DNA of 64,000 bases, taken from IMG/VR virus record IMGVR_UViG_3300021373_000005, one strand, 5' to 3'. Under the pieces are notes generated by a model. That model made no database searches, was not told where the DNA came from, and worked only from the letters and a program-made list of their open reading frames with translations. Numbering within the stretch: the stretch's first letter is position 1; each line of letters starts with the position of its first letter. Below are positions 1,179 through 9,916 of the stretch, one piece after another. Source of the stretch: a virus. The translations under genes were made by a program, and so were the position numbers.

Positions 1179-2312
1179 ATGAAAAATTTTAAAGATCTCG
1201 TCTCAGAAATTGCTCAACCAAAAGCACCTGAAGAAAGACGCTTTAAGGACCAACATACAATTGAGGTGATTAAACACCCTGTTGCTCCTGACCACGTTTT
1301 TACTGGTGAGATTCCTGGCATAGGCAATGGTAAGCGACCTGCTGACCAAGAAGGTGATACGAGTTACGACTTAGCTTATAAAACTAAAGTTGCTCAAACT
1401 TTGCCACAACGTGCAGGTGCAGGTAAGCAAGTTGCTGAACAAAAATCTATTACAGAAATTCTTGGAGTCAATAAAAAGAAAGACGAAAAGAAAGATGACG
1501 AAGAATCAATGGAAGAAGAATTAAAGGCTTCTTGTGGTTGCGACGAATCTTGTGAACACTGTGGTGGAGAACATAAGGTTGAAGAAATCGGTAAAGAATG
1601 TTCTTGCTGTGGTAATGAGATTAAAGGTATTGAGGAAGGTGGTTGTTCAGGTGATAAGCTAAATGCTGAAAAGAAACCTGTTAAAAAGGCAGAAACTAAA
1701 GAATCAGAAACAGATTCTGCTAAAACTATCGAACCTGAAGTACAAAAGAAAAAAGTTTTAAAAGGTGATGGTAAACCTAAAACAGGTCCAACATCAGTCA
1801 CCATTAAAGATAGTAATGGTAAAACATTATCAATGACATTTAAAGAAATGTTAGCAAAAGTATCAACAGAGGAAGAATTGCTTGAAAGTCCCCAACAAGA
1901 AATTCCTATGATGATGAAACAACTACATTTCATTTGTTATGCCACTGAAGAAATCCAAGAATATCTAAAAATGGAAGGACAAGATCCTGAAGAATGGTGG
2001 CAAAATAAATTAGCAGAAGTATTTTCTAATGTTAAATCATTGTATGCTTATAGTAAAGGTGACCAAATGGTTAACGGTAAACCTTTATCAGCAGCAAAGA
2101 TGTATACAGCAGCTTATGAATCAATCGAAGCTGGTGAGTTTCAATTACAAAATGAAACAGTAATTGAAGTATCAGAAGAAGATGCTAACATTTTAAATAA
2201 TATGTTTGATGAATTAAATGAAACTAATACAACCGAAATGTATAACGTTCTAATCGCTGACGAAGCAGGTTATAACGAAATCCTTACATTTGCGAAGGAG
2301 AATCTACAATGA
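1179..2312 (+). CDS. Prohead core-associated polyprotein (C-terminus gp68-like), with Cys-rich segment
   Basis: Occupies the gp67/gp68 slot between portal and protease; N-terminus MKNFKDLVSE resembles T4 capsid-targeting sequences; Glu-rich linkers; 8-Cys cluster. Confidence 0.6.
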   Translation: MKNFKDLVSEIAQPKAPEERRFKDQHTIEVIKHPVAPDHVFTGEIPGIGNGKRPADQEGDTSYDLAYKTKVAQTLPQRAGAGKQVAEQKSITEILGVNKKKDEKKDDEESMEEELKASCGCDESCEHCGGEHKVEEIGKECSCCGNEIKGIEEGGCSGDKLNAEKKPVKKAETKESETDSAKTIEPEVQKKKVLKGDGKPKTGPTSVTIKDSNGKTLSMTFKEMLAKVSTEEELLESPQQEIPMMMKQLHFICYATEEIQEYLKMEGQDPEEWWQNKLAEVFSNVKSLYAYSKGDQMVNGKPLSAAKMYTAAYESIEAGEFQLQNETVIEVSEEDANILNNMFDELNETNTTEMYNVLIADEAGYNEILTFAKENLQ

Positions 2313-6131: not shown

Positions 6132-6160
6132 ATTATACTCTATCTCACAACGAATGTCAA
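6132..6160 (-). promoter_or_regulatory. Sigma70-like early promoter
   Basis: TTGACA-17 nt-TATAAT on minus strand. Confidence 0.85.
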
Positions 6161-6183
6161 TAGTTTTATGAGAAAAAAGTGAA

Positions 6184-6402
6184 TTATTTTTTAGAGAAAT
6201 AGGAACGAATTAAAAAGATACGTGTATATGCTACAATAGTCATTACAGCAGTGACCAGAGTGCCCAGTATGACAGGGTCGGTTATACCAAACCGTTCTAT
6301 ATAGATATAGAGCAAAAAGAGGTTTAGGGGGTAATTTATGGCTAGGCCAGTTGCGATTTGAAATGAAGTTTCTTTGTGAATCTTTTTTGTCTCTGGTTTC
6401 AT
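6184..6402 (-). CDS. Small two-helix membrane protein
   Basis: 72 aa with two hydrophobic segments; preceded by two further 42-44 aa hydrophobic micro-ORFs read manually between ~6399 and 6658. Confidence 0.65.
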   Translation of the reverse strand: MKPETKKIHKETSFQIATGLAINYPLNLFLLYIYIERFGITDPVILGTLVTAVMTIVAYTRIFLIRSYFSKK

Positions 6403-6671
6403 AAGTATTTACCTACAAGATATCCTGCTAGGAATACAAACCAATCAAATATGAAATGCATTACAAAAGATAAAGCAAATATTTCTTTCCAATGTTTTTT
6501 ACATATATTTAAATATTCTGCTAACCGTTTCATACCATTGCTGTCCACAATAAATTCAAGCAACCTTTAGTAAAAGCTCCTTCATACCAAAGTATTAACA
6601 TTGCTAATATTGTAATTGCTGTAAAGCACCAAACGATTTCTCTTATTAATTGTATCATCTCTTTCATAATC

Positions 6672-6746
6672 TGGTAGCCCGTAGGAGAATCGAACTCCTG
6701 TTGCATGGATGAAAACCATGTGTCCTAACCACTAGACGAACGGGCC
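6672..6746 (-). tRNA. trnE: tRNA-Glu (TTC)
   Basis: GGCCCGT acceptor stem, anticodon arm CATGG-TT-TTC-AT-CCATG, GTTCGATT T-loop, encoded CCA. Confidence 0.97.
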
Positions 6747-6749
6747 GAA

Positions 6750-7412
6750 TAAAAAAACGGCGGACCTTCCATATACGCCTATCAAAGGTATGTTAAGATC
6801 CGCCTAGGTATTGAACTTCAGTGTCACAATCGTCATTTGGTCTTACTGCCTTTCTAAAGGACCTGATGACTAGTCAGGGGTTTCAAACTACCTTGGTGAT
6901 TAGAATACTTTGTTAACGTAATTCGTTAAATAGTGTAGAATTGTTAATCGTAGTATTCTAATCTAAAAAACTTAAAATTCGTAGGTACGTCTCTCGGACT
7001 TATCTGTTACTTGTTAACTCCAGTCTCGGAGGTAGCAAACTACCTCTATACCTAAAGGAGAAAGATCCTAGACTGCCGTCTTGTGTCGGTTTGGGTGCAA
7101 ACCTAAACCCTATCTCTTTCACAGTGCGCGGCTCGCAGCCGACTTCAGTATCGAGCGTTTCTTCATACACGGAGACGCTTTAATACCCACTCTATTGATT
7201 TCGTTCTGACCCGTATAATTACATGCATTCCTACATCGGCCTTCTCATTACTCTGTGAATATATCTGTTACGATGGGATATATTCAACAGCTTCAGCTGC
7301 CGGTCGGGTTGTCCACCTATATATTAGAGCCTTCCGATTGATAAGATCTTCTACTCGACTCAGGTTCTCTACTCACCGATTGTCTCTGTCGGTGGGGTGT
7401 TTCCCTCAATAT
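6750..7412 (-). ncRNA. Candidate large structured non-coding RNA (ROOL/GOLLD-like)
   Basis: ~660 nt without a credible ORF, bounded by promoter 7419-7447 and a hairpin plus U7 tract at 6751-6805; at least 8 hairpins; adjacent to a tRNA; family assignment is from recalled resemblance only. Confidence 0.65.
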
Positions 7413-7418
7413 GATACT

Positions 7419-7447
7419 ATTATACTATAGTTTCATTATGATGTCAA
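7419..7447 (-). promoter_or_regulatory. Sigma70-like early promoter driving the candidate ncRNA
   Basis: TTGACA-17-TATAAT; no ORF downstream for ~750 nt. Confidence 0.85.
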
Positions 7448-7466
7448 TAGTTTTTGTGAAAAAAGT

Positions 7467-7658
7467 TTAATTATTTGATAATATGAAATCTGCTACGTCA
7501 GAATCCTCGGTAGCTTCAACAATACAAGGAATTCCTCTTGCATCCATTTTATCAACAAAATCTCTTGCATGCTTATATCTCATCTCACCTTGGTCAATTT
7601 TTTCCATTGTGGATGGATTAATAATAGAGACATTAAATAATGTAAAATCGGTAATCAT
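7467..7658 (-). CDS. Hypothetical protein
   Basis: 63-aa ORF overlapping the upstream stop by 4 nt. Confidence 0.6.
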   Translation of the reverse strand: MITDFTLFNVSIINPSTMEKIDQGEMRYKHARDFVDKMDARGIPCIVEATEDSDVADFILSNN

Positions 7659-7843
7659 ACTTCAGCAATACTCGACTTATGAATTACAGTTGATTCCAAC
7701 CTACCATACTTATCGTATGTATATACAGTTTGTTGCTGATGATCTCCATGCACTTGAGTTGTTACTTTTACAACTCGCGTATCATATTCGACTTTGTTGA
7801 AATAATTGGTTGGCCACATTGGGCTGATAGGAGTAATTTCCAT
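7655..7843 (-). CDS. Hypothetical protein
   Basis: 62-aa ORF in a tightly packed run. Confidence 0.6.
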   Translation of the reverse strand: MEITPISPMWPTNYFNKVEYDTRVVKVTTQVHGDHQQQTVYTYDKYGRLESTVIHKSSIAEV

Positions 7844-8068
7844 TTAATCATTTTCCTTTTGCTCGTCGTACCATTTAACTAATTCTTGGTCATCTCCCAA
7901 TCCTTGAGTTCTAAGATAACCCATTTCAATTAGTGTATCAATTGTTTCTTGAGTGATTCTTTTTGAATGCTTAAATGAAGGAGGTTCATTTCTTGCCATA
8001 AACCATCCTACACAAGTAAATATTAAAGCAGTTAACCAATAAGTCCAATTATCCATACTAATCTCCAT
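7844..8068 (-). CDS. Hypothetical membrane-anchored protein
   Basis: N-terminal hydrophobic helix WTYWLTALIFTCVGWFM. Confidence 0.65.
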   Translation of the reverse strand: MEISMDNWTYWLTALIFTCVGWFMARNEPPSFKHSKRITQETIDTLIEMGYLRTQGLGDDQELVKWYDEQKEND

Positions 8069-8300
8069 GTCTTGCTAAGACTGCATCGATAATTCTTTCT
8101 TGTATTGATTGCGTGTCATCATCTAAATTAGATGGGTTAGTAATTGCACTATCATCTTCAGTAATAATAAAATCATTTTTAATAGCCATTTTATATATTT
8201 GGTTTTCTGTCATAGTTTCCAAACAAGCTATTAAAAGATCATTTTTATTAATGAAGCCTTTGTTCGCATCGTACATTAATTGCTCTGCTATTTGTTCCAT
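8058..8300 (-). CDS. Hypothetical protein
   Basis: 80-aa ORF with AGGAGA SD. Confidence 0.65.
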   Translation of the reverse strand: MEQIAEQLMYDANKGFINKNDLLIACLETMTENQIYKMAIKNDFIITEDDSAITNPSNLDDDTQSIQERIIDAVLARHGD

Positions 8301-8333
8301 AAGAACTCTCCTTTCTATATTGCTAATTATAAT

Positions 8334-8897
8334 TTAAGCAACTTCAGTCGCATTCCACCATTCAGGTATATCACGTTTTGACCATGTCATACTAAAACGA
8401 TTTTGCTTTGTATGATAAAACGCACGGTATGATTCTACCGCATTTTCAGATATGCACTCTGGGTTTGATGCCATCGCAAGTCTGAATGGTGTTCTTTTAT
8501 TTGACCTCTTTATATTTTCAGGAGGTGCCTTTAAGGCGTTTCTTAATTTGTTGTCGGTTGCATGTATCTTTCCATACCTATGTGTATATTCATCACACAA
8601 TGCAACAAAATGTTTATAGTGCCAATTATAGTTGGCGGTATTTTCTCTTGTCCAAATAGTACACGGATGATTGAAATGACATGCTTTATACAGTGTCCTT
8701 TCTCTTTCTTTATCTTCAAGATAAAAATATTGTAGCATAGAACCACTTCTTGAAGGTCTACGTTCCATTATACCGTCTAACATACGATGAGTTGTTGAAA
8801 GCATCTGTGCAGATTCAATAACCATCTTAACAACATGTTTATCACATTGCTGTTGTGCAGCTAATATCGGATCTTCATCTAAAATAAATAAATTCAT
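8334..8897 (-). CDS. Pyrimidine-dimer DNA glycosylase / DenV-related family protein
   Basis: MNLFILDEDP...CDKHVVKMVIESAQMLST, LYKACHFNHPCTIW, EYTHRYGKIH; start moved to ATG 8897 because the longer ORF-track start lies inside the promoter. Confidence 0.7.
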   Translation of the reverse strand: MNLFILDEDPILAAQQQCDKHVVKMVIESAQMLSTTHRMLDGIMERRPSRSGSMLQYFYLEDKERERTLYKACHFNHPCTIWTRENTANYNWHYKHFVALCDEYTHRYGKIHATDNKLRNALKAPPENIKRSNKRTPFRLAMASNPECISENAVESYRAFYHTKQNRFSMTWSKRDIPEWWNATEVA

Positions 8898-8904
8898 AGT
8901 GTCT

Positions 8905-8933
8905 ATTATATCAAAAGTTAAACTAAATGTCAA
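8905..8933 (-). promoter_or_regulatory. Sigma70-like early promoter (leaderless transcript likely)
   Basis: TTGACA-17-TATAAT, with ATG 7 nt after the -10 hexamer. Confidence 0.8.
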
Positions 8934-9210
8934 TAGTAAAAAAGCCTATTTCTTCAACACGGGCTTTTATGTATTCAGAAGCTTGTTCTAAACCTTTAAT
9001 CAGCGATGCTATATCTTCTTTATGATACTCTGCAAATTTATCTACTCCAGGTAATTTATAGCTTTCTAAATCACGGTCAATTAATTCTTTCCAAGTATGT
9101 ACTTCTTCCCATTCAGGCTCGCAATGGTCTTCAACATATATAGATTTTAAAATACCTTCCGGCCGAATCCAAGTACTATAATCAATCTCAAGCTCAACCT
9201 TCATATTCAA
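8923..9210 (-). CDS. Hypothetical protein
   Basis: 95-aa ORF, overlapping coupling with neighbours. Confidence 0.6.
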   Translation of the reverse strand: MNMKVELEIDYSTWIRPEGILKSIYVEDHCEPEWEEVHTWKELIDRDLESYKLPGVDKFAEYHKEDIASLIKGLEQASEYIKARVEEIGFFTIDI

Positions 9211-9412
9211 TTCCTAAGTGTTCACCTTTACTAAAATGATAGCCCATTGATATCATAAATTTTTCTAATACTTCAATCATATCATCTTTGCCCAAATCTT
9301 TTTCCATTATGTCAATGGTGATTCGCGTATTAATTGAACTTTTATCTTCGTATGGATGGCATATCAATTGAATATACGGTTTCTCTTCAGCAGGTTTATG
9401 ATTCCACGTCAT
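9194..9412 (-). CDS. Hypothetical protein
   Basis: 72-aa ORF with GAGG SD, downstream of tRNA-Leu. Confidence 0.6.
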   Translation of the reverse strand: MTWNHKPAEEKPYIQLICHPYEDKSSINTRITIDIMEKDLGKDDMIEVLEKFMISMGYHFSKGEHLGIEYEG

Positions 9413-9436
9413 TTACCTTTCCTCTTGTTATTAATT

Positions 9437-9523
9437 TGGTACCGCGAGTCGGACTTGAACCGACAAGGCCGTTAAGCCGAGGGATTTTAAGTCCCTTGTG
9501 TTTACCAATTTCACCACCGCGGC
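9437..9523 (-). tRNA. trnL: tRNA-Leu (TAA)
   Basis: GCCGCGG acceptor stem, anticodon arm AGGGA-CT-TAA-AA-TCCCT, long variable arm, GTTCAAGT T-loop, CCA end. Confidence 0.97.
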
Positions 9524-9580
9524 AAAAAGCTAAAGAAAAGCCTATCAGACGACAGGCTCTTCAGATTTGGTCAGAACGAC

Positions 9581-9856
9581 CTATGATGCGTTAAGCATGG
9601 TGGCTGGGACTCTCCAAGTACCTTGAGGAGTCGAAACCTTAATGTTCTTTTGCATTACTTTTTCAACAACTCCGGAGATTTTTTCTCCTGACCTATTTAC
9701 GAAGAATACGGAATCTCCAGTTGAGAAGTTTCCTGTTGCCATTTGAGCAACGTTAGTTTGATGTTGCTTGAACAAAGAAGCAACCATTTTAAAATCACCA
9801 CCTTCCATCTTAGAGAACAAAGTGTTGATTTGCGAGATTTCAGTTTTAGTTAACAT
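9581..9856 (-). CDS. Hypothetical protein with SH3/KOW-like C-terminus
   Basis: FSTGDSVFF...ISGVVEKVMQKNIKV...TWRVPATML beta-barrel pattern. Confidence 0.6.
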   Translation of the reverse strand: MLTKTEISQINTLFSKMEGGDFKMVASLFKQHQTNVAQMATGNFSTGDSVFFVNRSGEKISGVVEKVMQKNIKVSTPQGTWRVPATMLNAS

Positions 9857-9887
9857 AATATATTTCCTTTTTCCAATTTATAGAACT

Positions 9888-9916
9888 ATTATACTATAGT
9901 TTCTTTATGATGTCAA
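9888..9916 (-). promoter_or_regulatory. Sigma70-like early promoter
   Basis: TTGACA-17-TATAAT. Confidence 0.85.

Follow-up and report, generated by a model that had tools for sequence, protein, structure and literature searches.

The stretch of DNA analysed here, the 64,000-nucleotide (nt) IMG/VR virus record IMGVR_UViG_3300021373_000005 (the window; all positions are counted from its first letter), carries on its minus strand a gene for a large non-coding RNA, which lies between a consensus promoter and a tRNA-Glu gene (Table 1). An earlier annotation made by a model from the letters alone (the sequence-only reading) had described the region as a perfect sigma70-type promoter followed by approximately 660 nt without a credible open reading frame (ORF) and ending in a hairpin plus U7 four bases before the tRNA. 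All three observations hold. The promoter matches the consensus at 12 of 12 positions, the hairpin, the U run, and the first tRNA nucleotide lie at 6804-6759, 6757-6751, and 6746, respectively, and no ORF longer than 56 aa occurs between 6750 and 7410. Furthermore, no ORF is conserved among 24 relatives, in which the longest ORFs shift in frame, place, and strand, and coding potential can therefore be ruled out. The RNA belongs to an uncatalogued, modular non-coding RNA family of approximately 370-770 nt, which is encoded by uncultured marine T4-like phages related to the pelagiphage HTVC008M and the OM43 phage Melnitz. We consider it nearly certain that this is a genuine family of structured RNAs and that it is neither ROOL nor GOLLD.

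Table 1. Features of the RNA locus (window positions).
Feature	Position	Strand	Remarks
Sigma-70-type early promoter	7419..7447	-	TTGACA-17-TATAAT, consensus match 12/12; -35 at 7447-7442, -10 at 7424-7419
Whole non-coding RNA	6747..7412	-	start at 7412 inferred
Domain 1 (D1; RNA nt 1-220)	7193..7412	-	universal core, closed by helix P1
Domain 2 (D2; RNA nt 227-432)	6981..7186	-	closed by long-range helix 7170-7178/6987-6996
Domain 3a (D3a)	6899..6962	-	12-bp stem S1 (6951-6962/6899-6910) and ~40-nt nearly invariant core 6911-6950
Domain 3b (D3b)	6806..6893	-	four-way junction; hairpins 6862-6878, 6849-6860, 6819-6848
Terminal long hairpin (6759-6804) and U7 (6751-6757)	6751..6804	-	stem covariation
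tRNA-Glu (UUC)	6672..6746	-	ARAGORN; Rfam tRNA model 62 bits

The case for a structured RNA rests upon covariation among relatives, since the single sequence has no more than a modest folding advantage over shuffled sequences (z = -2.8 for the minus strand and -4.5 for the plus strand). Using our main alignment (A2; 24 family members), RNAalifold returned 113 pairs, 59 of them with compensatory change. A 158-pair consensus comprising approximately 30 helices pairs 95.3% of the alignment cells, as opposed to 34-39% when the partners are slid by 1-3 columns, and 79 of its pairs have changed on both sides, compared with 15-23 in the slid controls. The covariation score likewise drops from 0.293 to 0.03-0.06 upon sliding, and none of 500 column shuffles reached the observed covariation values. 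Covariation in homologous loci was among the checks that the sequence-only reading had named, and the helices it had listed, at 7257-7285, 7029-7046, 6862-6878, 7088-7109, 7154-7179, and 7372-7396 as well as a 12-bp stem that we place at 6899-6962, all exhibit compensatory changes in relatives. One RNAalifold pairing, 6955-6959/6937-6941, was discarded, as it conflicts with the better-supported 12-bp stem S1, and a scan for extra covarying column pairs, such as those of pseudoknots, returned just 2-bp coincidences.

Three domains can be distinguished in this fold. D1, which is nearly invariant and occurs in every member that has the promoter, is closed by P1 (nt 2-7 paired with nt 215-220) and contains a capped helix (7374-7394), a helix pair (7326-7362), a long hairpin (7253-7290), and a GGAA-tetraloop hairpin (7223-7236); its helices 3, 5, 8, 11, and 12 covary. 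Model R1 scores D1 at 119 bits (E = 1.5e-25) and finds a single copy in the window. Nt 14-17 could alternatively pair with GGUG at nt 96-99, which is supported by one lineage only. D2 contains hairpins at 7147-7169, 7128-7143, 7088-7109, and 7029-7046, and both its inner helices 15-23 and its closing helix covary, the latter with compensatory changes in 5 of 8 pairs (one of these pairs, for example, is CG in 11, GC in 8, and AU in 4 sequences). Within D3a, stem S1 is present in every type of the family, with a different sequence each time and always 1-2 nt from the core, and it covaries in all types. The core itself holds a palindromic hairpin (6913-6929) with an AAUU-N loop, the stem of which is identical in 22 of 22 sequences, while the neighboring helices covary. 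D3b was tested on a hand-drawn structure that includes the terminal hairpin (alignment A4, from which model R2 was built). Compensatory changes affect 26 of its 43 pairs, and 96.5% of its cells are paired, compared with 32-43% after sliding. Throughout the RNA, many loops, the GGAA tetraloop among them, remain constant on varying stems, a pattern that typically reflects tertiary contacts or partner binding and that suggests such interactions here.

The ends of the RNA can be placed with some precision. Family conservation sets in exactly at 7412, seven nt past the -10 hexamer, and the same promoter geometry (TTGAC[A/T]-17-TATAAT, 6 nt, conserved A) recurs in all 20 distinct upstream regions of relatives, whose spacer sequences vary. 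A start at 7412 is thus well supported and would yield an RNA of 662 nt if transcription terminates at U7 (6751) or 666 nt if RNase P frees it at the 5' end of the tRNA (6747). A host sigma-70 early promoter of this kind also suggests that the RNA is made early in infection. The tRNA-Glu gene, which begins 4 nt past U7 and has no promoter of its own, lies directly behind the RNA in most lineages, with a promoter-free gap of 4-13 nt. Of the 14 stem pairs in the terminal hairpin, 8 covary in the hand-drawn structure. Conservation does not extend to the U run: it is missing from L012, L014, and L109, which have the tRNA directly downstream all the same, whereas L020, L048, L068, and L079 have added a separate true terminator 3' of the hairpin. 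Because U runs are missing from some relatives and extra terminators occur in others, the hairpin is presumably first and foremost part of the fold, with U7 serving as a mere leaky stop in the window copy, and the RNA and tRNA-Glu very probably share one primary transcript, from which RNase P would separate them.

The minus strand is indicated alike by the promoter, by the tRNA, and by the terminators found in relatives. The sequence-only reading had cautioned that the wobble pairs left the strand in doubt, and for the window copy alone this remains the case, since its 4 G.U pairs and 1 A.C pair are too few to settle the matter. Family-wide, the consensus pairs on the minus strand include 174 G.U cells versus 44 A.C cells, a count that is merely supportive because the structure was derived on that strand.

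That reading had also called the RNA ROOL/GOLLD-like, and part of this stands. As with other ornate phage RNAs, the RNA exceeds 400 nt, is multi-domain, ORF-free, phage-borne, and tRNA-linked, and has covarying helices. Its setting is of the ROOL type as well (a T4-like phage, 662-666 nt, ORF-free, tRNA-Glu 4 nt off), although this setting is common to several unrelated RNA classes. The covariance models give a different result. We searched all 4227 families of Rfam 15 at gathering thresholds and at E<=10, using window 6400-7800 as the query. Neither the ROOL model (RF03087; 574 positions, gathering 99.1 bits) nor the GOLLD model (RF02032; 416 positions, gathering 150 bits) matched the window copy, eight other members, or five phage records at E<=10; the run of the ROOL model on the records lacked a positive control, as the 14 control genomes have no ROOL, while cmscan recovered tRNAs in the same runs. 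(RF01998 is group-II-D1D4-1, a group II intron fragment family, rather than GOLLD.) The resemblance to ROOL that the sequence-only reading had suggested is accordingly not borne out. It may derive from the purine-rich strands GAA/AGUA beside the long hairpin of D1 (7237-7302, minus strand), a candidate loop-E or sarcin-ricin-like module. The remaining Rfam 15 families, including RNase P, tmRNA, 6S, group I/II introns, riboswitches, OLE, HEARO, and raiA, gave no match either, and tRNA alone passes its threshold. Weak matches to HrrF, mir-4677, STnc, and the like (E>0.05, far under gathering scores) concern unrelated small families and were set aside as noise.

Exact-pattern scans of IMG/VR and JGI metagenomes yielded 56 related loci with 34 distinct sequences of 371-771 nt, all from uncultured marine T4-like phage contigs. 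Compensatory changes are already present in the nearest relative, a 93% identical copy. When three variants were compared with 50,697 GenBank phage records by blastn, the only matches were to tRNA-Glu or terminators, and the best E values of R1 and R2 on HTVC008M and Melnitz (0.06-0.7) were taken as noise. Similarly, a 17-mer scan of 185,579 prokaryote genomes (one per species) returned 36 chance matches, none of which is the RNA, and an exact pattern from a variable hairpin had no match. The 18-nt D3a hairpin pattern TTAACGAATTNCGTTAAC also occurs in 24 unrelated contigs inside a capsid-like gene, and these chance coding matches were discarded. They lie at the start of the gene in L113, L116, L117, L120, and approximately 20 further loci of unrelated IMG/VR contigs, where the protein begins MSFDVSSLTNYVNEQ.

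The family is modular. D1 and D2 occur with their own terminator in L026, L065, and L198-L212, D1 and D3 occur without D2 in L023, a 371-nt mini variant, and L213 combines D1, D2, and the tRNA without D3. D3 is missing from 14 distinct variants, a strong terminator with a new promoter behind it closes at least 13 short forms, and L020 and L079 are mosaics of types. The reverse arrangement, D3 and the tRNA without D1, is found on G004, a 137-kb phage contig, which is negative with R1 and positive with R2 (157 bits). Only domain 3 (approximately 270 nt) is present there, directly upstream of tRNA-Glu (C1:79230-79374, minus strand; L195), and an R1 search of the entire contig gives no domain 1; L124, L135, and L142 are related cases. 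Domain 3 can therefore persist alone beside a tRNA. D1 is the universal core of the promoter-bearing forms, and D3 is more often linked to the tRNA than the other modules are.

The surrounding genes place the window among the marine T4-like phages, which its portal, protease, scaffold, and major capsid genes match; the capsid gene shares approximately 74% DNA identity with those of Pelagibacter phage HTVC008M and Methylophilales phage Melnitz. The RNA is encoded within a cluster of small early genes on the minus strand, which is convergent with the major capsid gene, and the syntenic order consists of small genes, the RNA, then tRNA-Glu, hemC, or nothing, the gene of a DUF7220-like membrane protein, and finally the convergent capsid gene. 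Four perfect TTGACA-17-TATAAT promoters occur within a single 4-kb stretch (window 6132-9916), all on the minus strand, with starts at 9916, 8933, 7447, and 6160; promoter-like sites number 24, compared with 15.8 expected. The most conserved neighbor (40 of 55 contexts) is the DUF7220-like protein, a 72-aa two-helix membrane protein with basic ends (window 6184-6402, minus strand). Three records with the RNA contain sub-threshold matches to it; HTVC008M and Melnitz, both of which are RNA-free, contain none. Pfam searches of ten flanking proteins identified no RNA-related domain.

Several further features of the locus were encountered. In L143, hemC (porphobilinogen deaminase, PF01379, E = 4e-56; 1373-2215, plus strand) replaces tRNA-Glu behind the RNA, and the same is true of L023. 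In both, hemC starts approximately 12 nt past the hairpin and U7 and is followed by the same DUF7220-like gene that the window has. Tetrapyrrole synthesis (the C5 pathway) involves both Glu-tRNA and HemC, and the alternation of the two behind the RNA may be meaningful or a coincidence. Elsewhere in the window, the second tRNA gene, tRNA-Leu(UAA) (9437-9523, minus strand), directly follows a terminator-like hairpin (9562-9535), which is itself preceded by a 91-aa ORF and a perfect promoter (9916-9888); the genome seems to favor such a placement of tRNAs behind hairpins. Upstream of the RNA, a 199-aa protein (window 8334-8933, minus strand) resembles the pyrimidine-dimer DNA glycosylases (PF03013, 21.8 bits, below the cut-off of 23) and is conserved in 26 contexts.

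One element of the family is absent from the window copy. An extra hairpin sits inside the first D1 helix in 21 of the 34 distinct variants. This D1 hairpin has five covarying stem types and loops of 7-8 nt (AAUGCAA, AAACGUA, UUCGCGA, AGUCGCGA, and CUCGCGG), whose cores UGCA, ACGU, and CGCG are all self-complementary, occupy the same loop positions, and are purine-flanked. The chance of three self-complementary cores is (1/16)^3 at a fixed position and approximately 0.01 if any loop window is allowed. One and the same D1 hairpin stem carries two different cores (L023 vs L122), while in L202 and L203, which have identical promoters, the whole D1 hairpin has been swapped. The latter pair also share their D2 tetraloop hairpin and differ in the D1 loop, and a pairing between these two elements was consequently rejected; the lack of covariation between them argues against an intramolecular partner at that site. 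Among the complete members, 7 have palindromic hairpins in both D1 and D3a, 14 in D1 only, 12 in D3a only, and 0 in neither. Palindrome switching of this type was used by Kretsch et al. (2025) to support the symmetric kissing loops OLE L9.3 and GOLLD L21a (PMC12286853).

Based upon these features, the interpretation we favor, with somewhat better than even confidence, is that of a trans-acting, self-associating architectural RNA that is made early together with tRNA-Glu. Host sigma-70 RNA polymerase would start at A7412 from the invariant consensus early promoter, and the transcript would fold as three independently closed domains. Transcription would then either stop at the last hairpin and U7 or continue into tRNA-Glu, in which case an RNase P cut at the tRNA 5' end should free both molecules. 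The freed RNA would work in trans as an architectural RNA, with the invariant loops on covarying stems forming tertiary contacts. At least in the relatives that have the D1 hairpin, RNA copies would pair via the self-complementary loops, as in GOLLD, ROOL, and OLE. Judging from the loop sequences, self-association somewhere in the family is an evenly balanced proposition, whereas for the window copy, which is without the D1 hairpin, it is doubtful. A bolder version of the proposal is that the family constitutes an independent class of self-assembling RNA-only particles that abundant marine T4-like phages would make within the first few minutes of infection, with exchangeable domains, swappable cassettes resembling the HIV-1 dimerization initiation site (DIS), assembly restricted to its own kind, and perhaps, since tRNA-Glu and hemC alternate directly behind the RNA, a functional tie to tRNA-Glu and haem-pathway supply. 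This we regard as speculative and rather unlikely. If assembly were indeed restricted in this manner, variants with UGCA, ACGU, and CGCG cores should associate only with a matching core.

Several points weigh against the favored interpretation. Firstly, the argument from palindromes comprises three loop classes in related sequences, and hence few independent events, and the complementary spread of the D1 and D3a palindromic hairpins is confounded by shared ancestry. Secondly, in the window copy the self-complementary loop candidates are just AAUU and CUAG. The former is invariant and would offer four A-U pairs in a 5-nt loop, which is poor kissing geometry, and the latter is not kept in relatives. 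Thirdly, two elements are beyond covariation testing: P1 is invariant in 24 of 24 members, while the 5' end also has a second possible partner, an AUCAAU site in D1, and the D3a hairpin never varies. Lastly, where the RNA begins and ends and how stable it is have been deduced by inference.

Some of the same observations could also be explained if the RNA were a protein-binding scaffold, sponge, or decoy, in which the invariant loops and the approximately 40-nt D3a core bind a phage or host protein and form a ribonucleoprotein like OLE-OapA. Candidate partners would include, for example, the neighboring small membrane protein or a host factor for RNA processing or defence. Many loops are invariant on covarying stems, and a D3a stem that is identical in 22 of 22 sequences beside covarying neighbors points to a sequence-specific reader. 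The DUF7220-like protein, as the most conserved neighbor, also tracks the RNA in the 3 records versus the 2 RNA-free phages. However, this link may be mere synteny within one phage lineage, the comparison amounts to 3 records versus 2 with DUF7220 matches under the Pfam cut-off, and the ten flanking proteins have no RNA-binding domain. We rate the scaffold as the strongest of the alternatives, though still a minority explanation, and one compatible with self-association, as both could hold. That the RNA and the DUF7220-like protein are partners in the manner of OLE and OapA is, for now, pure conjecture by analogy.

The position of the RNA relative to tRNA-Glu could instead suggest a giant cis-acting leader or attenuator that gates the tRNA, or hemC in L143 and L023, and perhaps senses a tetrapyrrole-linked metabolite. 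Such a role would account for a hairpin and U7 located 4 nt before a tRNA that lacks its own promoter, and approximately 12 nt before hemC in L023 and L143, as well as for the shared involvement of Glu-tRNA and HemC in tetrapyrrole synthesis. Even so, it is improbable. At least 13 short forms stop at a strong terminator and have a new promoter behind it, and in L020, L048, L068, and L079 the extra true terminator faces a convergent gene. The U run is wholly absent from L012, L014, and L109, and conservation of a termination switch can thus be ruled out. At 660 nt, the RNA is also far larger than known combinations of aptamer and expression platform, none of which, to our knowledge, approaches this size. 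Furthermore, hosts among the SAR11-like Alphaproteobacteria, if such they are, would obtain 5-aminolevulinate (ALA) through the Shemin route, which has no need of tRNA-Glu.

A ribozyme, for instance one with self-processing activity or one that acts on the tRNA precursor, is more improbable again. The RNA is large, it has a conserved core with invariant junction nucleotides within covarying helices, and it is physically linked to a tRNA, all of which would suit a catalyst. Yet there is no match to RNase P, group I/II introns, or self-cleaving ribozymes at E<=10, many members have no tRNA, and the lineages differ in which domains they can do without, which would be unusual for a single catalytic core. 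Finally, a very divergent ROOL or GOLLD member would share the setting and size class of those RNAs (phage, tRNA-side, 400-800 nt, ornate; PMC12286853), but in view of the absence of RF03087 and RF02032 matches at E<=10 in the copy, eight members, and five records, and of conserved and variable halves that are reversed relative to GOLLD, this explanation is scarcely credible.

We know of just a handful of ornate, covariation-backed bacterial or phage non-coding RNAs longer than 400 nt, namely OLE, GOLLD, ROOL, HEARO, and raiA, and each such large RNA has prompted a fresh question about the capabilities of protein-free RNA. The present family adds another, one that is borne by numerically important marine phages and has very strong comparative support. 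New here are the map of the domains, the forms with D3 alone or with hemC, and the D1 hairpin with its switching palindromes. Natural deletion variants (D1+D2, D1+D3, and D3 alone) already map the parts that fold or persist independently, and the core switches that preserve self-complementarity turn self-pairing into a directly testable hypothesis. Transcripts of 371-771 nt are short enough for in-vitro transcription, mass photometry, and cryo-EM. Whether phages generally build RNA-only assemblies by their tRNAs thereby becomes testable in a second, unrelated phage lineage.

When compared with known systems, the RNA shares some features with each of several RNAs. The stable RNAs C and D of T4 (species 1 and 2) are non-coding RNAs of a tRNA cluster, are co-transcribed and processed with phage tRNAs, and have no assigned function. 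Like the present RNA, they are T4-type phage RNAs alongside tRNAs, but they measure approximately 120-140 nt, and the likeness is one of description only. The loop of the HIV-1 DIS consists of two purines, a self-complementary core, and a further purine, and its palindrome is naturally swapped between GCGCGC and GUGCAC. The D1 hairpin of relatives has the same loop layout, which we regard as an analogy of mechanism only, given that the present cores span four to six nt within loops of 7-8 nt and that the window copy has no such hairpin. OLE resembles the present RNA as a structured RNA of approximately 600 nt whose protein partner OapA finds a parallel in the small membrane protein that is the most conserved neighbor here; OLE works with small membrane proteins encoded nearby (PMC3413148) and forms a homodimer via a palindromic kissing loop, among other contacts (PMC12286853). 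Unlike the present RNA, which has no Rfam match, OLE is encoded in the chromosomes of anaerobic extremophile Firmicutes and not by phages.

The closest parallels are with the two RNAs invoked at the outset. ROOL is known from Firmicutes and rumen samples. Like the RNA described here, it is a large (approximately 580 nt), ornate, ORF-free phage or prophage RNA that is often located near tRNA genes, and it differs in its hosts (marine T4-like phages in our case) and its domain plan, as well as by the missing covariance-model match. ROOL forms an octameric cage made of RNA only. Its multimer is held by kissing loops and A-minor contacts (PMC12286853). GOLLD is likewise a giant phage-associated RNA beside tRNAs, with some copies of marine-metagenomic origin. 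Its 3' region is universally conserved and its 5' region less so (PMC12286853), whereas here, where the GOLLD model finds no match, it is the 5' domain D1 that is universal and the 3' domain D3 that is optional. In GOLLD, palindrome-switching loops (GGCC, GAUC, and AGCU) support symmetric kissing loops (PMC12286853), and this loop logic is paralleled by the switch among UGCA, ACGU, and CGCG in the relatives that carry the D1 hairpin.

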